From contig JBJHCF010000037.1 in NCBI GenBank assembly GCA_050506795.1, positions 1 to 55,388 of the forward strand: a stretch of DNA of 55,388 nt, read 5' to 3'. Made by a program: the position numbers and the translations under genes. Position 1 is the first letter of the stretch, and every line of letters starts with the position of its first letter. The notes beneath the pieces are model-generated. The model was not told where the DNA came from, did not search any database, and saw nothing but the letters and a program-made list of their open reading frames with translations. This document shows, piece by piece, positions 4,017 to 13,491 of the stretch. The DNA comes from Opitutia bacterium (lineage in GTDB: Bacteria > Verrucomicrobiota > Verrucomicrobiia > Opitutales > T3Sed10-336).

Positions 4017-4499
4017 ATGAGTATGACCAAATCATCTTCCGCTTCGGCAAGAGCCAAATCCGCGTCGAAAATCACGCAGGGGCTCAACCAGGTTCTGGCC
4101 GACACCTACGCCTTGATGGCACTGAGCCACCACGCTCACTGGAACGTCGAAGGTCCCGGCTTCTTCGCGCTGCATGCCGCTTTTGAGGAGCATTACAACG
4201 ACCTCTTCCAGGCCGCCGACGAAATCGCCGAGCGCGTCCGGGCCCTCGACGCCTACGCCGTCGGCGGGCTCAAGGCCCTGGCCAAACTCGCCAACCTGGA
4301 CGAACTGGAGGCTCCCGCACCGCAAAACGACTACGTCGCCGCGCTGGTGGACGCCCATGAAAAGACCGCCCGCGACATCCGCAAGGTAAAGGATACCGCC
4401 GCGGACGAGGGCGACACCGAAACGGAGGACATGCTCATCGCCCGCCTCCAGGTCCATGAGAAAACCCTCTGGATGCTGAAAAGCTTCCTGAAGAGTTGA
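4017..4499 (+). CDS. dps: Dps family ferritin-like DNA protection protein
   Basis: HWNVEGPGFFALHAAFEEHY, DEIAERVRAL, HEKTLWML. Confidence 0.95.
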   Translation: MSMTKSSSASARAKSASKITQGLNQVLADTYALMALSHHAHWNVEGPGFFALHAAFEEHYNDLFQAADEIAERVRALDAYAVGGLKALAKLANLDELEAPAPQNDYVAALVDAHEKTARDIRKVKDTAADEGDTETEDMLIARLQVHEKTLWMLKSFLKS

Positions 4500-4784: not shown

Positions 4785-4862
4785 CAAGTGCCGTCAGGCA
4801 GGGTGTCGCGGTCCGGGCCGATGCCCGCCCGCCAATCAAATCATCGATCAGGCCAAATCCAA

Positions 4863-7556
4863 ATGACAGACACCACTCAGCAGAAGTTCGTCATGCTCCG
4901 TCCCCATTCCCTCACCGACTACCAGGTCGTCGAGCGGTTGGAGAGTCGGCCCCAGGGATTGACCGATGAGGAGGTTGGGAAACGCCTGGAGATCGTCGGC
5001 CCCAACCGTCTGCCCGAGCCCGGTAAGGACGGTCTGATCAAGCGGTTCTTCAAACATTTTCATGATACCCTGATCTACCTCCTGATCGCCGCCGCGGCAA
5101 TCACCGCGGCCCTCGGACATTGGATCGACACCGCCGTCATTATGGCGGTGGTGCTCATCAACGCGATTATCGGCCTGATTCAGGAGGGCAAGGCCAACCA
5201 GGCCCTGGAGGGCATCCGCAAGATGCTCTCCGCCCACGCCCAGGTTCGCCGCGACCGCGAATGGCGGGAAATCGAGGCCGAGAATCTCGTCCCCGGCGAC
5301 ATCGTCCGGATACGTTCGGGCGACCGCGTTCCGGCCGACATTCGTCTTCTCGAAGCGGTCAACCTCCGCATCGAGGAATCGGCCCTGACCGGTGAGTCCG
5401 TTCCCTCGTCGAAACGTCCCGAACCGGTGGAACCTCACTCCGGGGTCGGCGACCGCACCTGCATGGCCTTTTCCGGTTCCATCGTGACTTCCGGCCGCGG
5501 CACGGGGATCGTGACCGGTACGGGAGTGAACACGGAAATGGGCAAGATCAACCGCATGCTCGCGGAGGTGCAAACCCTGGCCACACCCCTCACCCGCCAG
5601 ATGGCGTCCTTTTCGAAAATTCTCTCCTTCGTCATCATCGCCATGGCGGCCGCCATGTTCGGTGTCGGCTGGTTTTTCCACGATTACGAACTGGCCGAAC
5701 TCTTTTTCGCCGCCATCGGCTTCGCGGTCGCGGCCATTCCCGAGGGCCTGCCGGCCATCCTCACCATCACCCTGGCCATTGGGGTCCAAAGCATGGCCCG
5801 GCGCAAAGCCATCACCCGCCAGCTCAACGCCGTCGAAACCCTGGGATCGGTGACCGTCATTTGCTCGGACAAAACGGGCACCCTCACCCGCAATGAAATG
5901 ACCGCGCGACAGGTAATCACGCCGCATCGCGACTACCAGGTCAGCGGCATCGGCTACGCCCCGGAAGGCAAGATCACCTTGGACGGAGAACCGGGCGACC
6001 TGAAAAAACATCCGGATTTGAACGCCCTCCTGGAAGTCATGGCGGTGTGCAACGATGCCGAGGTCGTGGAGAAGGATGGACACTGGACCCTGGTCGGCGA
6101 GCCGACCGAGGGCGCCTTGCGCACTCTCTCCCGCAAAGCCGATTTTCCCCGCCAAGCCTACTCGCGGGTGGCGGTGATTCCGTTCGAGTCCGAGAACAAG
6201 TTCATGGCCACCCTCAGCCGGATTCCCGGCGGAGACTCGCGCATCCTTATGAAGGGCGCCCCGGACCGGCTGCTCGACCGTTGCGCACGGCAACAAACCC
6301 CCACCGGAGAGGCCGAACCCCTCGATCGGGCGTACTGGGAACGCTGGATCGACATCCTGGGCGGACAGGGCCTCCGGGTGCTCGCGGCCGCGACGCGTGA
6401 ATCTTCCGAGAAGAAAAAGGACCTCACCTTGAACGATCTCGCCGGGGACATGGTGTTCCTCGGTCTCGTTGGCATCGTCGACCCGCCCCGCGAGGAAGCC
6501 ATCCAGGCCATCAAAATCTGTCGTGAGGCCGGCATCCGGATAAAAATGATCACCGGCGATCACCCCGGAACCGCCAGCGCCATCGCCCGGGAAATGGGGA
6601 TCTCCGAAACCGGTGAAGCGGTCACGGGCGACGAGCTGGAGAAGGCCGACGACCAGGAACTGCAACGCCTGGTGCGCGACCACGACATCTTCGCCCGCAC
6701 CAGTCCGGAACACAAGCTGCGCCTGGTGACGGCCCTGCAGGCCAACGGCGAGGTGGTCGCCATGACCGGCGACGGGGTGAACGACGCCCCCGCCCTGAAG
6801 CGGGCCGACGTCGGCGTGGCCATGGGTATCAAAGGCACCGAAGCCACCAAGGAAGCCGCCGACATCGTGCTGGCCGACGACAACTTCGCCTCCATCGAAC
6901 GAGCGGTCGAGGAGGGCCGCACCATTTACGACAACCTGCGCAAGGCCATCCTGTTTATTCTCCCCACCAACGGCGCCGAGGCCCTGGTCATCCTGGTCGC
7001 CGTCGCTCTTGGCTGGGTTCTGCCGCTGACCCCGGTGCAGATTCTCTGGGTCAACATGGTCACCGCGGTCACCCTGGCCCTCGCCCTGGCCTTCGAACCC
7101 TCCGAACCCGACATCATGCGACGTCCGCCACGCGATCCCAAAGCGCGCATTCTGGGTCTTCGATATCTCTGGCGGATCAGTTTCGTGTCGCTCTTGATCG
7201 GCGGCGCAACGATCGCGGTATTCGTCATCGAACGCCACCTCGAAATGCCCATCGATCTGGCCCGCACCATGGCGGTCAACACCCTCGTTTGCGCCCAGGT
7301 GTTCTATTTGTTCAACAGCCGCTTCATGCGCGAATCGAGTTGCCGGGTGGACCGCCTGTTCACCAACCGGGTGGTCTGGTTCGCCGTCACCGCCCTGGCC
7401 CTGTTGCAACTGGCTTTCGTTTACCTGCCATTCATGCACACCGCCTTCGGCTCGACGCCCCTCGAACTCCGCCACTGGCTGGTGCCTATCGGTGTCGGCC
7501 TGGCCGTGTTCTTCATCGTGGAAGCCGAAAAAGCCCTGACCCGCAAGGAGTCCTAG
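4863..7556 (+). CDS. Cation-transporting P-type ATPase (type II, Ca2+-like)
   Basis: TGES, IPEGLP, DKTGTLT, KGAP, TGDGVND motifs; multiple TM helices. Confidence 0.96.
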   Translation: MTDTTQQKFVMLRPHSLTDYQVVERLESRPQGLTDEEVGKRLEIVGPNRLPEPGKDGLIKRFFKHFHDTLIYLLIAAAAITAALGHWIDTAVIMAVVLINAIIGLIQEGKANQALEGIRKMLSAHAQVRRDREWREIEAENLVPGDIVRIRSGDRVPADIRLLEAVNLRIEESALTGESVPSSKRPEPVEPHSGVGDRTCMAFSGSIVTSGRGTGIVTGTGVNTEMGKINRMLAEVQTLATPLTRQMASFSKILSFVIIAMAAAMFGVGWFFHDYELAELFFAAIGFAVAAIPEGLPAILTITLAIGVQSMARRKAITRQLNAVETLGSVTVICSDKTGTLTRNEMTARQVITPHRDYQVSGIGYAPEGKITLDGEPGDLKKHPDLNALLEVMAVCNDAEVVEKDGHWTLVGEPTEGALRTLSRKADFPRQAYSRVAVIPFESENKFMATLSRIPGGDSRILMKGAPDRLLDRCARQQTPTGEAEPLDRAYWERWIDILGGQGLRVLAAATRESSEKKKDLTLNDLAGDMVFLGLVGIVDPPREEAIQAIKICREAGIRIKMITGDHPGTASAIAREMGISETGEAVTGDELEKADDQELQRLVRDHDIFARTSPEHKLRLVTALQANGEVVAMTGDGVNDAPALKRADVGVAMGIKGTEATKEAADIVLADDNFASIERAVEEGRTIYDNLRKAILFILPTNGAEALVILVAVALGWVLPLTPVQILWVNMVTAVTLALALAFEPSEPDIMRRPPRDPKARILGLRYLWRISFVSLLIGGATIAVFVIERHLEMPIDLARTMAVNTLVCAQVFYLFNSRFMRESSCRVDRLFTNRVVWFAVTALALLQLAFVYLPFMHTAFGSTPLELRHWLVPIGVGLAVFFIVEAEKALTRKES

Positions 7557-7588: not shown

Positions 7589-7592
7589 AGGG

Positions 7593-7780
7593 AATGGCAC
7601 TCGGGTAAGGCCGTTGACCGAAGGAGCGTGGTCCAACTGTGGTAAGTTTACCAAAAATCAATCCCGGTTTTGAGCGTTGCTGAACTGTAAAGGTTCTCAC
7701 ACAGAGCCACGGAGCTCACGGAGGTGGGTCCTGTATAAATCTCCGTGACTTTGTGCCTCCGTGTGAGCCCGATCTCCGCA
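7593..7780. mobile_element. Element A left end followed by truncated element B
   Basis: aatggcactcgggtaagg, then sequence matching the 45400 and 53002 copies (cacagagccacggagctcacggag...ctccgtgtgag). Confidence 0.65.
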
Positions 7781-7930
7781 TTTGCGGTTCCCGTCGCCCA
7801 GAGGGCACCCGCCGGAAACCGTCCCTTCGGGACTCGCGTTCGCTCACCATCTACGCGCTGCCGCGCTTCGTCCGCGGTATTTTTTGCTTCATCAAGCGAT
7901 ACGCCGCCTTAACGAGCGCCATTCGGGCTA

Positions 7931-7950
7931 TTGTTACAGATCTGTGACAA
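7931..7950. promoter_or_regulatory. Pho-box-like palindromic operator
   Basis: ttgttacagatctgtgacaa; minus strand reads TTGTCACAGATCTGTAAC, two half-sites 11 bp apart. Confidence 0.55.
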
Positions 7951-8069
7951 TTCCTCCGCATCCGGCGGGATAATTCCAAAAGGGTTTGATTCCGGGACGC
8001 TTCCGTTCAATCTCAACCGTATGGCATTTCCACTGGTCTACCGTGTCCGGAAAGAAGGCGAGGCGATCC

Positions 8070-8558
8070 ATGGGTGTTGAGATCGAACGCAAGTTTTTGG
8101 TCGACGCGGAAAAACTCCCCGTTCCCGATTCCAGTTTCGCCGTCGAGCAGGCCTACCTCGATCATGAAAAGATCAAAGCCCGGGTGCGCATCACCGGCGA
8201 CCGCGCCTTTCTCACACTCAAAGCCGTCGGCAACGGCCTGACTCGGGCGGAATTCGAGTATCCGATTCCGGTGGAGGACGCGCACGAACTGCTGCGCTTG
8301 TTCGCACCGGCCGCACGAATCGAGAAAACCCGCCGTCACTACCATTACGGCGGCCGGCTTTGGGAGGTCGACGTTTTTGCCGGGGCCAACGCCGGACTGG
8401 TCATGGCGGAAGTGGAGCTCTCCGCCGAGGACGAATCGTTCGAGACGCCTCCCTGGGTGGGACGGGAGGTCAGCGGCGACCCGCGTTTTTTCAACGCCAA
8501 CCTGGCCAATCATCCGTATCCGGAATGGAAGGACGCCGCAACCGGGGGCCGGCAATGA
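8070..8558 (+). CDS. CYTH domain protein (triphosphate tunnel metalloenzyme)
   Basis: EIERKF, QAYL, RVRI, LTLK, EFEY, IEKTR, WEVDVF, AEVEL. Confidence 0.94.
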   Translation: MGVEIERKFLVDAEKLPVPDSSFAVEQAYLDHEKIKARVRITGDRAFLTLKAVGNGLTRAEFEYPIPVEDAHELLRLFAPAARIEKTRRHYHYGGRLWEVDVFAGANAGLVMAEVELSAEDESFETPPWVGREVSGDPRFFNANLANHPYPEWKDAATGGRQ

Positions 8559-8579
8559 CCCCGCAACCGCACCCGGGAA

Positions 8580-10148
8580 ATGGCTAAGCTGTCACGCTGG
8601 TGGTCGACCGAAGAATCGCGCGCCGAACGGGTTCTCGCCGATCTGCGGAAATCTTTCACCGTTGTTTCGCGCGGGAATGAAACCTTGTCGGCGCGCTGCC
8701 TGGAAACCTTCGATTGGCGCCTGCTGCACGAGGGGATCGTGATGCTCGAATTCGGTCGCCCCCGGCGTTTGGCTCTTTGCCGGGTACACGACCGCTCCAT
8801 TCTGACCCAGGTCCGCTTCACCGCCCCGAAAGAAAAATGCTTCTGGCAGGATCTGCCTCCGGGAGAACTGCGCGATCAGGCACGCCGGATCTGCGGGGTG
8901 CGCGCGCTGCTTTCCTGCGGTCGTTTCAAGGAATCACGGGAAACTTTCGATCTGCGGAACAACGATGACAAAACCATCTGCCGCCTCAGTCTCGAAAAGG
9001 CCTCCGCCAATGGCAGGGGGAGTGAAAACAGCTTGACCGGCTTCCGGGTCATTCCGCTCAAAGGATACGAAACCGAAGCCGGCGAAGTCATCGCCCGTCT
9101 GACCGACACCGGATGCCGCCCGCGCGAGTCCTGGACGCATCCCGCCATGGTGGCGTTCGCTTCGGCCGGACGCGAAGCGTTCGACTATTCCTCCAAGACC
9201 GATCTGACTCTCCCGCCGGGGGTCACCGCGGCCGACGCCTGCCGACGCATTCACCTGAGCTCCCTCGACGTCGCGGAGCGCAACCTCCCGGGTTTGCTCG
9301 CCGACCTGGATACGGAGTTCCTGCATGACTTTCGCGTGGCCCTTCGCCGCAGCCGCTCCGCCCTCCAACTGGTTAAAGGCGTTTTCCCTTCGCCGGTGGA
9401 AAAACGTTATCTTAAAAAACTCGCTTCCCTGCAAAAGGCCACCAACCGCCTGCGCGATCTCGACGTCCATCTGATCGAACGCGAATCGCTCGAAACCCTG
9501 CTGCCGCCGGAACTCCATGAGGGATTGTCCGGGCTGTTCGAACAGATTGCCCGCGAACGCCAACGGGCGTTCACTCAATGTCGCAAACACCTGGAACGCC
9601 CCAAAACCCGGGCCATTCTGAAAGAATGGCGTGAGTTCCTGGAAAAGCAGCCCTACGGCAAAGCCCCCCTGGCGGGCAAACCGGCCGTCAAGGTGGGCCG
9701 CCGCCTGCTGCGCAAACGCTTTATGCGCATCCTGCGCGACGGACGGGCCATCATACCGGATTCACCCGACCAGGCCCTGCACCGGTTGCGCCTTCAGTGC
9801 AAAAAACTGCGCTACCTGCTCGAGTTTTTCGGCAGCCTGTTTCCTCCCGAGGACACCGCTTTTCTGGTTCGTCGGTTTCGCAAACTTCAGAATATTCTCG
9901 GCCGCTTCAACGACCTCTGCAACCAGGAAGCCTGGGCGCGGCGACGCCTGGAAGCGGCCAACGGCAATCAAGGCGCCTCCACCGGGTTGGCCGCCTCGCT
10001 GGGCGGACTGCTGTCCGAACTCGCCCGAGCCCGACGAACCGAACGGGCTCGATTCGGTCGCGCCTTCGCCCGCCTGGACACTCCAGAGATGCGACACAAG
10101 GCGGATCAGTTGTTCGGGGCAAAAAAGCCGAAGAAAGGTCGCCTATGA
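8580..10148 (+). CDS. CHAD domain protein (polyphosphate-binding) with N-terminal extension
   Basis: EFLHDFRVALRRSRS, RDLDV, LHRLRLQCKKLRYLLE, LQNILGRFND; very basic. Confidence 0.92.
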   Translation: MAKLSRWWSTEESRAERVLADLRKSFTVVSRGNETLSARCLETFDWRLLHEGIVMLEFGRPRRLALCRVHDRSILTQVRFTAPKEKCFWQDLPPGELRDQARRICGVRALLSCGRFKESRETFDLRNNDDKTICRLSLEKASANGRGSENSLTGFRVIPLKGYETEAGEVIARLTDTGCRPRESWTHPAMVAFASAGREAFDYSSKTDLTLPPGVTAADACRRIHLSSLDVAERNLPGLLADLDTEFLHDFRVALRRSRSALQLVKGVFPSPVEKRYLKKLASLQKATNRLRDLDVHLIERESLETLLPPELHEGLSGLFEQIARERQRAFTQCRKHLERPKTRAILKEWREFLEKQPYGKAPLAGKPAVKVGRRLLRKRFMRILRDGRAIIPDSPDQALHRLRLQCKKLRYLLEFFGSLFPPEDTAFLVRRFRKLQNILGRFNDLCNQEAWARRRLEAANGNQGASTGLAASLGGLLSELARARRTERARFGRAFARLDTPEMRHKADQLFGAKKPKKGRL

Positions 10149-10894
10149 AAACGATCGCCCTGTACAGCATTAAAGGTGGGGTCGGCAAAACCGCTGCCGC
10201 CGTCAATCTGGCCCACTTCGCCGCCGGCGAGGGCCGGCGCACACTCCTGTGCGATCTCGATCCCCAGGCTGCCGCCACATTCTACCTGCGGGTGCGAGCG
10301 GGAAAGGAACACGGCGCCAAGCAGCTGATAAAAGGCGGACGTCGCCTCGACCGGCAAATCCGGGAGTCCGATTATCCCGGATTAGATGTCCTGCCCGCCA
10401 AGCTGAGTTTTCGCAACCTCGACCTTAAACTCGACGCAAGCAAACGTTCGCGTCGCCGCCTGGCGGAGTCCCTGAAGGAGTTCTCCGGCGAATACGATCT
10501 GGTGATCATCGACGCGCCGCCCAACATCACTCTGCTCTCGGAAAACATCATCGCCGCCAGCGATCTCATTCTCTCTCCGGTCATCCCCACCACCCTTTCT
10601 CTGCGCACATGGACCCAGCTCCGCGATTTCCTCGCTCGGGAGAACCAACCCGATCCCCCAATGTACGCATTCTTTTCCATGGCCGAAAGGCGGAAGAAAC
10701 TGCAGTCTCGCATTATGGCCGATACCCGTGACACCGATCCCCGCTTTCTCAACACCCCCATACCCATGGCGGCCGCCGTCGAACGCATGGGACAGGAACG
10801 CGCTCCCTTGCCGGCCTATGATCGACGCTCCCCCGCCACCCGCGCCTTCCGCGACCTGTGGACCGAAGTCAACGGCCTGCTTGCTGATCATTGA
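10145..10894 (+). CDS. ParA/Soj/MinD-family ATPase (orphan)
   Basis: Deviant Walker A KGGVGKT, DLDPQ, IIDAPP; ATGA overlap with the CHAD stop. Confidence 0.93.
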   Translation: MKTIALYSIKGGVGKTAAAVNLAHFAAGEGRRTLLCDLDPQAAATFYLRVRAGKEHGAKQLIKGGRRLDRQIRESDYPGLDVLPAKLSFRNLDLKLDASKRSRRRLAESLKEFSGEYDLVIIDAPPNITLLSENIIAASDLILSPVIPTTLSLRTWTQLRDFLARENQPDPPMYAFFSMAERRKKLQSRIMADTRDTDPRFLNTPIPMAAAVERMGQERAPLPAYDRRSPATRAFRDLWTEVNGLLADH

Positions 10895-11323: not shown

Positions 11324-11935
11324 TCAGGGTACCAGCGTTTCCGCCGGTGCGAAGTGTACACCTTTTGCTTGGAGTTCGTTCTTGGTTTTCTCGAAAGCGT
11401 CCTGGGACAACGCACGGGTGCAGTCCTCCATCACCGCCACGCGGAATCCCTGTTCGGCGGCGTCTCGGGCGGTGTAGGCGACACAGACTTCGGCCGCCAA
11501 CCCGGCAATGTGCACAGTGTCAACCCCCATGGCCCGGAGCCATTCCGCCAGACCGGTTTTATGACGACGTCCGTTGTCGAAAAAGGCCGAGTAACTGTCG
11601 ACTTTGGGATCGGAGCCTTTACGAAAAATCGCCGAGACGGGGTTGAGATTCAACTCCTCCGGAAATTCCGCTCCGTCGGTGCCCTGGATACAGTGATCCG
11701 GCCAAAGGGTCTGCTCGAGGCCATCGAGTTCGATGACCTCCATCGGTTCGCGACCCCGGTGACTTGAGGCGAAACTGAGGTGCCCGGGCGGATGCCAGTC
11801 CTGGGTCAGCGTCACCAAAGGGTAATGTTCGATGCAACGATTGATCACCGGAAGGATACGGTCCCCCTCGGCTACCGGAAGGCTGCCTCCAGGCATGAAG
11901 TCTCGTTGCACATCCACGAGTATCAGTGCATTCAT
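11324..11935 (-). CDS. pncA: Nicotinamidase/pyrazinamidase
   Basis: VDVQRDF, QDWHP, WPDHC, DSYSAF, GLAAEVCV. Confidence 0.95.
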   Translation of the reverse strand: MNALILVDVQRDFMPGGSLPVAEGDRILPVINRCIEHYPLVTLTQDWHPPGHLSFASSHRGREPMEVIELDGLEQTLWPDHCIQGTDGAEFPEELNLNPVSAIFRKGSDPKVDSYSAFFDNGRRHKTGLAEWLRAMGVDTVHIAGLAAEVCVAYTARDAAEQGFRVAVMEDCTRALSQDAFEKTKNELQAKGVHFAPAETLVP

Positions 11936-13350
11936 GATTCCATCGTCTTTCTGTTTTGATTCATCCAGTCATCACGCATATCCCGCAACCGCAGGCTGAG
12001 ACCGACTTTGTAGAGATGAGGATTCTCCAGTCGCTGGTGTTCGGCGGGCAAGGTGGCCAGCGCCTCCCGCGCGTATTTCGCGGACTCCGCGACCGGGACC
12101 GGGTCGGCTACCGGAGCCCCCTCCCGCCACACCTCGCCCAACAGTGGACGGTGCTCGAACCCGGCCAGATTCAGAGAGCTGTGGGTTTCGTGAGGGTGCC
12201 ACATGCAATCGGGAGGCTCCTCGTCAGCCAGATGGATCGCATCGGCCACCATCATGCGGTCGGCATCGTAGTACCGGCTCACCGCCTTCCGTCCGGGAAA
12301 GGTCGCCTTGACAACGGTCTCCGACGTTTTCATGCGCGGCTTTCCGCCCGCCTCCGCCAGCTTGTAAACCCCGTCGAGGGCGGCGTCCGGTTGGCCGGTG
12401 GCCAGGCTTGTGCCCACCCCGAAAGCATCGATCGGCGCCTCCTGCCGAAGGAGCGATTGAATAACGTATTCGTCGAGCTGATTCGACGCGAAGATCGCCA
12501 CCGTCTCCAGTTCGGCCTCGTCCAACGCCCGGCGCACCCGCCGCGACAGATATGCCAGATCGCCGCTGTCCAGGCGAACCCCCATCAGCGCCTCGCCGCG
12601 CTCGCGCATCTCCCCGGCCACCCGTATGGCATTGGGAAGACCGGAACGCAGGGTGTCGTATGTATCCAGCAGAAGAACGGTGGCATTGCCGTGCGCCTCG
12701 GCGAAGCGCCGAAACGCGGTCAGTTCATCGTCGTACGACTGCACGAAGGAGTGCGCCATAGTTCCGGCCGCCCGCAGGTTCCAAGCCCTGGCGGCCGACA
12801 TGTTGGAAGTGGTATCGAAACCTCCGATACAAGCCGCCCGGCTGGCCCAGAGCCCGCCCAATCCCTGGGCGCGACGCAAGCCGAACTCGCTCAGACTCCG
12901 CTCTCCCGCGCTGCGCCGGCAACGCGCGGCTTTGGTGGCAATCAGCGAGTGGAAGTTCAAAACGTTCAGGATCAGAGTCTCGATGATCTGGGTCTCCAGC
13001 AATCCGCCCTCAACCCGCACCACGGTTTCAAGCGGGAACACCACCTCGCCCTCGGGCGGCGCAAACACCGCGCCGCGAAATCGAAACGACGCCAGGAATT
13101 CCAGAAAATCCCCGGGAAACCCATCCTTCTCAAGAAACGCCACCTCGTCCTCTGAGAACCGATACCACCGCAGCGCGTCAAACAAGGGATCCAGGCCCGC
13201 AAATACGGCATACCCTCCGGCAAAAGGCGCCTTGCGGAAAAAAGTGTCAAACACCGCCGGTTCCCCGGCCCGCCCCGCGCGCCAGTACGCCAGGGCCATC
13301 GTCAGTTCATACCGGTCGGTGTACAGGCCGCTCAACAACCGCTCGTCCAT
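11932..13350 (-). CDS. pncB: Nicotinate phosphoribosyltransferase
   Basis: TDRYELTM, EFGLRRAQG, GTMAHS, LDTYD, RLDSGD, GVYKL; ATGA overlap with pncA. Confidence 0.96.
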   Translation of the reverse strand: MDERLLSGLYTDRYELTMALAYWRAGRAGEPAVFDTFFRKAPFAGGYAVFAGLDPLFDALRWYRFSEDEVAFLEKDGFPGDFLEFLASFRFRGAVFAPPEGEVVFPLETVVRVEGGLLETQIIETLILNVLNFHSLIATKAARCRRSAGERSLSEFGLRRAQGLGGLWASRAACIGGFDTTSNMSAARAWNLRAAGTMAHSFVQSYDDELTAFRRFAEAHGNATVLLLDTYDTLRSGLPNAIRVAGEMRERGEALMGVRLDSGDLAYLSRRVRRALDEAELETVAIFASNQLDEYVIQSLLRQEAPIDAFGVGTSLATGQPDAALDGVYKLAEAGGKPRMKTSETVVKATFPGRKAVSRYYDADRMMVADAIHLADEEPPDCMWHPHETHSSLNLAGFEHRPLLGEVWREGAPVADPVPVAESAKYAREALATLPAEHQRLENPHLYKVGLSLRLRDMRDDWMNQNRKTMES

Positions 13351-13491
13351 GGTTTTATAATAACGCCCCAGACCCGAGACACAAGCCTGTATCCCGATCG
13401 GTCTGGAGGTTCCCTCGACACCGGAGTTCGACAACAGGCAGGTAAAGGATAACGTGGTAGGAGAAACGCACGCAACGGTTCCGCAACCGCC

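Follow-up and report, generated by a model that had tools for sequence, protein, structure and literature searches.

A ParA-family ATPase gene coupled to a pseudo-TTM–CHAD gene: a candidate polyphosphate-granule positioning module in an Opitutia bacterium

The three-gene locus

We analyzed contig JBJHCF010000037.1 of the Opitutia bacterium assembly GCA_050506795.1, a stretch of 55,388 nucleotides (contig C37 of the genome, hereafter the window), in which three co-directional genes encode a standalone CYTH enzyme (8070-8558), a CHAD protein (8580-10148) and an orphan ParA-family ATPase (10145-10894). Our results indicate that ParA and CHAD belong to a real, conserved and uncharacterised module of the ParA/MinD-plus-partner kind, of which both the cargo and the adaptor fold are likely new. 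An earlier note on this DNA had described three tightly linked genes, an ATGA coupling between CHAD and ParA and the absence of ParB and MinE from the vicinity, and had proposed a role in the positioning of polyphosphate (polyP) granules. The descriptive points stand. Coordinates and Pfam matches agree with a tight linkage, in which CYTH and CHAD are 21 nt apart and the ATGA at 10145-10148 is common to the CHAD stop and the ParA start; the sole ParB_N match of the genome (4.94 Mb, 97.8% complete) lies on a separate contig, C41, and MinE has no match anywhere in it. Open reading frames were read for positions 1-22000 of the window, with the following features at the locus.

8070-8558, + strand: standalone CYTH/TTM enzyme of the NeuTTM (NE1496) type, 162 aa, ATG start (PF01928, E 2.5e-17; 3typ/2fbl, E 5e-19)
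8580-10148, + strand: CHAD gene, 522 aa (PF05235 at aa 228-453, E 2.8e-51)
8580-9191, + strand: N-terminal domain, aa 1-204, predicted pseudo-TTM and likely ParA-contact domain (AlphaFold2 pLDDT 91; 6yp4 superposition; ESM Atlas; conservation)
9192-10148, + strand: CHAD domain, aa 205-522, predicted to bind polyP, CtCHAD ortholog (PF05235; 3e0s/6qv7/6qva; superposition; conserved contacts)
10145-10894, + strand: orphan ParA/Soj-fold ATPase, 249 aa (AAA_31, E 9.7e-34; KGGVGKT at aa 10-16; ERRKKL at aa 181-186)
7931-7950, no strand assigned: Pho-box-like site some 120 nt 5′ of the CYTH start, made up of two directly repeated 7-mers, 11 bp apart, which also form a near-palindrome; the best match is that of the − strand
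7859-7889, + strand: terminator-like hairpin and T run, by consensus match only, which would close the upstream P-type ATPase unit and mark a boundary outside the module

The host genome contains a single copy each of the CYTH, CHAD and family ParA genes, together with ppk1 on contig C59, a ppk2 on C23 and pstSCAB-phoU on C15, while Ppx-GppA had no match in it. The next gene 3′ of ParA is convergent. The hairpin proper (7859-7879) lies between the three-gene unit and the upstream P-type ATPase gene, terminator-type matches numbering 7 in the region versus 4.8 in shuffles.

A CHAD protein with a predicted, catalytically dead TTM front domain

The gene 2 product is an ortholog of CtCHAD of Chlorobaculum tepidum (Q8KE09; PDB 3E0S, 6QV7, 6QVA) and has the same length, 522 aa. 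CtCHAD binds polyP, not DNA or RNA, with contacts from His253, Arg256, Arg260, Arg296, Arg418 and Tyr419 (PMC6537752; here and below, papers are cited for individual passages). The CHAD family profile matches the C. tepidum structures 3e0s/6qv7/6qva at E 1e-145, and the CHAD domain of our AlphaFold2 (AF2) model (pLDDT 91) superposes on 6qv7 with a Z-score of 36.0 and a root-mean-square deviation (rmsd) of 1.9 over 313 residues. It forms two four-helix bundles round a basic pore, and the equivalents of the tested contacts (H249, R252, R256, R292, R411 and Y412) are invariant in 36/36 aligned sequences. The polyP-binding role that the earlier note had assigned to CHAD is upheld by these residues and by an ortholog crystallised on polyP, and the gene 2 CHAD domain presumably binds polyP as well. 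The C. tepidum study covered residues 208-522 only, and its passages leave the N-terminal pseudo-TTM and the downstream ParA outside their discussion (PMC6537752).

The first ~205 residues of the CHAD protein match no Pfam family, and Pfam CYTH was reached by 0/27 sequences. In the predicted structure, residues 1-204 superpose on 6yp4 (Z 12.9, rmsd 3.7, 176 residues aligned); the TTM barrel is also matched by TTM structures in Foldseek, and ESM Atlas returned CYTH clusters at 0.95 for this domain. No conserved acidic pair of the ExExK type was found on strand 1 in either 36 or 27 aligned sequences. The domain is thus predicted to be a pseudo-TTM, with a CYTH/TTM fold but no catalytic ExExK, in which D/E42, F44, R108, K131 and K/R161-G162-Y163 are conserved. 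The TTM-CHAD layout resembles that of YgiF (Z 17.8, but at an rmsd of 19); unlike in YgiF and NeuTTM, however, ExExK is missing from the fused TTM of gene 2, which is preceded by the gene of a second, intact TTM.

This second protein, the product of gene 1, resembles NeuTTM and carries ExExK, RxR and ExE, the motifs that characterize TTM enzymes, whereas the HF motif found only in class IV cyclases (PMC8233210) is absent. Because HF is missing, an adenylate cyclase identity was ruled out, and the motifs point to a likely inorganic tripolyphosphatase. A CYTH gene also adjoins the CHAD-ParA pair in the nearest relative, in L004, in L209 and on Paracoccus plasmids, but not at most loci. The earlier note had counted CYTH as an operon member; it is one here, as a predicted triphosphate enzyme, but it is an optional member of the module.

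Evidence tying ParA to the TTM fold

K131, G162 and Y/F163 are kept in 107/107 distinct TTM-CHAD sequences from ParA loci, whereas K131 and/or Y163 are lost in three of the four TTM-CHADs of ParA-less genomes (G473, G065 and G196, from three phyla), a comparison restricted to n=4, with weaker alignments and with G619 as the one exception that retains K131/Y163. These genomes have only Soj-level ParA matches (119-141 bits), and all four of their TTM-CHADs keep H249, R252, R292, R411 and Y412.

A second line of evidence comes from gene fusions. The 109 family proteins of at least 440 aa comprise 56 ParA-TTM fusions, 24 with CHAD, 10 with HAD/S6PP, 15 with SBP_bac_3 and 4 others. The ParA-TTM fusions, called by a profile made from nine of them (Pfam CYTH was found on 17/105 long members), share one layout and one tree branch, some with ExExK and others without. 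A profile comparison between the N-terminal domain of gene 2 and the fused TTM gave a probability of 60% (E 8.5e-5 over 128 columns), which is weak alone. A metagenome scan with the ParA-TTM fusion alignment found no full-length fusion locus. Examples of these fusions are P0132, P0142, P0186, P0193, P0207, P0266, P0352 and about 50 more, one source being Planctomycetota. Thirdly, ParA overlaps a CYTH gene in G005, which has no CHAD match.

ParA is therefore tied to the TTM fold by three separate routes: ParA-dependent residues, ParA-TTM fusions and the G005 overlap. The retention of these residues together with the fusions suggests that the pseudo-TTM domain is likely the ParA contact. Prediction of a complex of two ParA copies with CHAD residues 3-512, both supplied as alignments, scored 0.62, compared to 0.54 for a control in which an unrelated protein was substituted for ParA, and thus speaks neither for nor against a contact. 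The earlier note had cast the CHAD protein, with its ~200-aa extension, as granule adaptor and ATPase activator; the extension is indeed conserved like a ParA-dependent element, but it is predicted to be a folded pseudo-TTM and not a basic peptide resembling those of McdB and ParB.

The CHAD-ParA fusions (24/109) were set aside and left uncounted: most combine a truncated CHAD with a linker that does not match, a pattern that an assembly indel close to the ATGA overlap would be expected to produce. In P0295, P0297 and the reverse-order P0300, both ParA and CHAD are whole, which is a weak lead.

A distinct and very basic ParA family

In the ParA family of gene 3, the signature K10, G11-T16, the Walker A′ residues D37/D39 and the Walker B residue D123 are invariant in 120/120 members. 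Further conserved basic residues are R49, R73, R90, K100, R183, K184 and R219. The basic patch ERRKKL to which the earlier note had drawn attention was located at aa 181-186, and its R183/K184 positions are K/R in 120/120. The AF2 model is best matched by Soj/ParA structures (TM-scores of 0.87-0.89), ahead of FleN, BcsQ and MinD. The minD models score gene 3 far under their cut-off, and helix 230-248, which belongs to the ParA core, is the last of the chain, with no extra C-terminal helix of the membrane-targeting type; together with the lack of a MinE match, this led us to reject a MinD identity.

The family is distinct. Its profile gives gene 3 381 bits versus at most 126 for the three other ParA-like genes of the genome, and the tree parts it from a Soj-type outgroup with an SH-aLRT of 100. 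At least 6221 proteins match gene 3 at E 1e-30 among the 8000 candidates scored, a number that includes general ParAs. McdA structures match the family profile only at E 3e-14. The family is also very basic, with a median net charge of +10.5 versus −5 for 60 control ParAs. R49 is K/R in 29/29 CHAD-linked, 4/4 PPK2-linked and 10/10 TTM-fused ParAs, and in 11/26 other solo ParAs.

Linkage between ParA and TTM-CHAD

We examined four evenly drawn phylum samples, centre genome included, in which family ParAs were called at cut-offs of 1e-55, 1e-46, 1e-46 and 1e-50 and were found in 6/151, 66/301, 10/201 and 61/251 genomes. TTM-CHAD is carried by 5, 8 (seven full-length and the diverged G196), 11 and 53 genomes of these samples, of which 4, 7, 9 and 53, respectively, also have a family ParA. 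Overall, family ParA occurs in 73/77 TTM-CHAD carriers versus 70/827 non-carriers, a comparison in which kin are not independent and 51/77 carriers are Chlorobia-like; once these 51 genomes are left out, 22/26 carriers have it. For any CHAD, the proportions are 51/66 versus 43/235; given the dependence among kin, we do not read the Fisher test result as a probability. The ParA-solo genomes L007, L014, L016, L017 and L028 (Chlorobiaceae and L017) keep a full TTM-CHAD elsewhere in all five cases tested. TTM-CHAD is thus nearly always found with ParA, whereas ParA is often found without TTM-CHAD.

From the ParA side, the 80 loci of the genome scan, 73 of them labelled Chlorobia, have CHAD directly upstream in 70 cases, with 2 at a contig edge and 8 solo, and ppk1 lies within 6 kb in 25/80. 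The ATGA overlap was present at 52/132 junctions counted. In the nearest relative, an edge case joined through a 112-nt contig overlap, the order is ppk2-CYTH-CHAD-ParA. The pair is present in Verrucomicrobiota, Bacteroidota, Pseudomonadota, the phylum of G152, Fidelibacterota, Calditrichota and a metagenome-assembled genome labelled Gemmatimonadota; pairs in Pseudomonadota include those of Paracoccus plasmids, accompanied by CYTH and NUDIX. Genes for sixA, Nudix and CYTH proteins are frequent neighbours, and 0/66 control loci of non-family ParAs, many on short contigs, had CHAD, ppk, sixA, Nudix or CYTH. Eleven metagenome loci of at least 250 bits have CHAD upstream in 8 cases and ppk1 upstream in 1.

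Two other genes recur next to CHAD. A leucine-rich-repeat gene lies directly 5′ of CHAD in 29/80 loci (L012:807-1910 and 28 more Chlorobiaceae), often between ppk1 and CHAD. On the Paracoccus plasmids and in G362, a small gene encoding a 62-aa protein that resembles ribbon-helix-helix (RHH) proteins (PF01402, E 0.0035, below the cut-off) overlaps the CHAD start (L343:4299-4487, L344:4288-4476, L139 ~7592-7705). This protein was ruled out as a required adaptor because it was found in L343, L344 and L139/L221 only and has no match in the host genome.

A Pho-box-like site upstream of the unit

The Pho-box-like site that the earlier note had placed upstream was recovered as an exact pattern match at 7933-7950 (−), with a one-mismatch match at 7931-7948 (+). 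In shuffled controls, the pattern gave a mean of 0.20 matches and reached two matches in 2/100, and the site at 7933-7950 is the single best-scoring match of the genome; the pattern follows an Escherichia coli consensus and was composed after the site had been seen. There are 134 weaker matches genome-wide, most of them due to chance. High-scoring like sites precede a Na+/Pi cotransporter gene of the same genome and lie between a GT4 glycosyltransferase gene and a DAGK-like gene, ~2.7 kb before pstS; by eye, pstS itself has a weak match. Similar sites occur upstream of CHAD in L138, L141 and L151. The genome has four OmpR-type regulator genes, none assigned as PhoB, and a sigma-70 scan of the + strand returned no promoter. 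On this sequence evidence, phosphate control of the three-gene unit through the site is likely. Elsewhere in the genome, at C32:1616-1655 (L249), four tandem Pho-box-like half-sites precede a ~520-aa gene without a Pfam match.

A candidate polyP-granule positioning module

It is very probable that ParA and TTM-CHAD act together in some way on polyP. The specific reading that we favour, to which we give somewhat less than an even chance, is that of an McdAB-like polyP-granule positioning module in which CHAD would serve as the granule anchor, the dead TTM as the ParA contact and the nucleoid as the matrix for ParA-ATP dimers. According to this model, the unit would likely be switched on via the Pho-box-like site. 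TTM-CHAD would coat polyP granules through the CHAD pore, as suggested by the polyP binding shown for its ortholog and by the invariant residues here, and the catalytically dead TTM barrel, a fold predicted from structure modelling and sequence, would face the neighbouring ParA, a contact to which the ParA-dependent residues and the fusions point. ATP-bound ParA dimers would sit on the nucleoid by way of a basic face that includes R183/K184. By analogy with known systems, granule-bound TTM-CHAD would trigger ATP hydrolysis and ParA release, producing a gradient that separates granules, and ParA would space them or distribute them over the nucleoid, much as McdA/McdB do with carboxysomes. The standalone CYTH, where present, likely clears tripolyphosphate arising from polyP turnover. 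That the family is the first ATP-driven positioner or partitioner of polyP granules, with the dead TTM barrel as a new ParA-activating adaptor fused either to CHAD or to the ATPase, is a proposal that we put forward tentatively.

In McdA/McdB as in this module, the gene of an orphan ParA-type ATPase, with neither ParB nor MinE, adjoins that of a protein with affinity, predicted in our case, for a cytoplasmic body, and both ATPases have intact Walker motifs, a Soj-like fold and a basic surface (PMC11407121, PMC13052382). Of the features shared by such positioning systems (PMC11407121), ATPase motifs, fold and an adjoining partner gene are found in the CHAD-linked branch; of the DNA-binding face, R183/K184 are kept and the second Soj-type arginine is replaced. 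The two differ in that gene 3 belongs to a different ParA family, that its neighbour is a 522-aa pseudo-TTM and CHAD protein and not a small coiled-coil McdB, that the cargo would be a polyP granule, and that no conserved basic N-terminal peptide is present.

Several observations weigh against the positioning model. To begin with, the pairing is far from universal. At a threshold of at least 250 bits, with centres and Chlorobia-like matches excluded, CHAD is directly upstream of ParA in 7/61, 7/9, 3/4 and 2/9 places, or 19/83; these 250-bit counts were used because a 340-bit band, considered as a clean CHAD-linked group, proved in trees not to be one clade. For the ParA, the pairing is therefore optional, about three in four evenly sampled members outside Chlorobia not being beside CHAD. 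The neighbourhood survey that the earlier note had called for supports linkage of CHAD, ppk and sixA with this ParA clade across phyla, but not as the rule. At E 1e-8, CHAD had no match in 9/10 further solo-ParA genomes, and the module is absent from 2/2 genus mates (67% and 92% complete) and from 10/11 family members. Furthermore, 36/83 evenly drawn places belong to one solo branch beside truA and rnfH. The dependence among kin and the small size of the motif-loss comparison, both given above, count on the same side. Concerning the proteins, no conserved basic peptide like those of ParB and McdB is found at the N-terminus of TTM-CHAD, and the charge of the ParA would suit polyP and DNA equally well as ligands. 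Of the two Soj-type DNA-binding arginines, R183 is aligned with the first, which we take to be the R189 position by way of the arginine in the genome's own Soj-type ParA (Bacillus subtilis Soj itself is not in the alignment), and M208 stands at the second; R189/R218-type labels are named in a legend of PMC3778016. A ParA fused to its own activator suits a diffusing ratchet poorly, and HAD/S6PP (10) and SBP_bac_3 (15) occur as other fusion partners. The HAD partner is sucrose-phosphatase-like, and the HAD and SBP_bac_3 fusions are P0123, P0273-P0281 and P0307-P0323. Finally, Synechococcus elongatus spaces its polyP without its only ParA-family ATPase, McdAB not being responsible, and the molecular basis of this spacing is called unclear (PMC13556221, 2026).

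The large solo branch (L154-L199, 37 places) has lost R49 and R183 (0/37), yet it stays basic, with a median of +10 for solo rows. Its genomes mostly carry a single-domain CHAD, which in 4/12 opened loci lies beside a ppk2-like gene, 2 of them Pfam-confirmed. The branch, which probably corresponds to magnetotactic Magnetococcia, may serve another cargo. It occurs in nearly a quarter of the genomes of the Pseudomonadota sample (for example L162:8181-9230, L164, L166, L168, L161 and L156). Six of its loci have an MreB/actin-family gene within ~4 kb upstream, which looks MamK-like and which we presume to be of that type.

Alternative explanations

The main alternative, which we hold to be rather unlikely, is that ParA is a non-positioning ATP switch, similar to FleN/FlhG or BcsQ, which binds TTM-fold and PPK partners on the granule and tunes polyP synthesis, polyP breakdown or granule size, so that granule position would change little without ParA. 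This reading accounts better than the positioning model for the ParA-TTM fusions, some with an intact ExExK, and for the ppk-linked copies, ParA lying directly behind ppk2 without CHAD in 4 places and directly behind ppk1 in L268, again with no CHAD between. It is also favoured by the HAD phosphatase fusions, by the frequent sixA, Nudix and CYTH neighbours, by the missing second Soj DNA arginine and by the lack of a Ppx-GppA match in the host genome. On the contrary, the ParA model resembles Soj/ParA structures more than FleN, BcsQ or MinD, R183/K184 are basic throughout the 120 members, and the partner domain of the main form offers no enzyme activity to regulate, because its catalytic residues are missing.

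It is improbable, in our estimation, that polyP itself is the ParA matrix, with basic ATP-bound dimers coating the granule and TTM-CHAD clearing them, thereby patterning enzymes or controlling granule fusion. Such a mechanism would fit a family much more basic than control ParAs, with conserved basic residues beyond the Soj DNA face (R49, R73, R90, K100 and R219), and the finding that CtCHAD binds neither DNA nor RNA (PMC6537752). The solo branch, however, stays basic despite the loss of R49 and R183, and for this reason charge alone does not indicate polyP.

We think it very improbable that the genes are co-regulated passengers of a mobile phosphate-stress cassette, in which ParA would have an unrelated cargo and make no contact with CHAD. 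Their spread is patchy, CHAD-adjacency changes state 9 times on the 86-row tree, and many solo copies have unrelated neighbours, such as the one on a Marinobacter plasmid near phbB. Against this stand the translational coupling in several phyla, the 73/77 co-occurrence, the retention of TTM-CHAD in trans, and the fusions and ParA-dependent conservation of the TTM domain. The Marinobacter copy (L345, NC_008739.1, 5001-5747) is a solo member near phbB and an acetyl-CoA transferase gene, a context that suggests polyhydroxybutyrate granules as another possible cargo of certain solo copies.

Lastly, a ParABS-type plasmid or chromosome partition ATPase lying here by chance is hardly credible and was rejected: although the fold is Soj-like, RefSeq tags such genes as chromosome segregation and CHAD in Paracoccus has a small RHH-like gene in front of it, gene 3 scores below every NCBIfam ParA cut-off (93.6 vs 180 bits), another, Soj-type ParA and an unlinked ParB are encoded elsewhere in the genome, and only 11/72,556 plasmid records match the family at E 1e-25, with no ParB or Rep annotated within 5-6 kb in the 4/11 records opened, one of which is cut at the record end.

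Relation to previous work

To our knowledge, phosins have no assigned function beyond polyP binding. Their deletion often leaves polyP granule formation intact (PMC13556221). In Acidithiobacillus, passages of two papers draw a conserved folD-ppk-parA-CHAD cluster in which parA likewise stands beside ppk and a CYTH-CHAD gene; the ParA is labelled as chromosome/plasmid partition, the CYTH is read as an adenylate cyclase, and no granule role is offered in these passages (PMC6416229, PMC10892726). AlgP of Pseudomonas aeruginosa and PhaM, PhaF and PhaH also tether storage granules to the nucleoid and influence how these are spaced, but unlike the ParA module they are single DNA-binding proteins without known ATP use (PMC9239181, PMC13052382). 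For polyP spacing, the passages of a 2025 review name only AlgP and list ATP dependence as unknown (PMC13052382). No ATP-driven machine for polyP-granule placement was described in the literature searched, nor was a ParA-CHAD system proposed or tested there; most subscription papers lie outside that search, and neighbourhood figures of CHAD papers may show parA.

The module provides a concrete two-gene candidate for granule placement in culturable hosts, Chlorobaculum tepidum and Paracoccus strains, and singles out K131 and Y163 of the TTM domain and D39, R49 and R183/K184 of ParA. If the positioning model is true, an inorganic condensate would join the list of ParA/MinD cargoes and a pseudo-enzyme fold would join their activators; if ParA is a switch instead, it would still be a new regulator of polyP metabolism.

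Other genes of the window and host genome

The window also contains ordinary neighbours, namely a Dps/ferritin-like gene (4152-4499, +), the cation P-type ATPase gene (4788-7556, +) and nicotinamidase-like and NAPRTase genes (11324-13434, −). Two more closely related orphan ParA-like genes without ParB occur in the host genome, at C7:113750-114301 and C39:2300-2839, and a 335-aa gene without a Pfam match comes after the one on C7.

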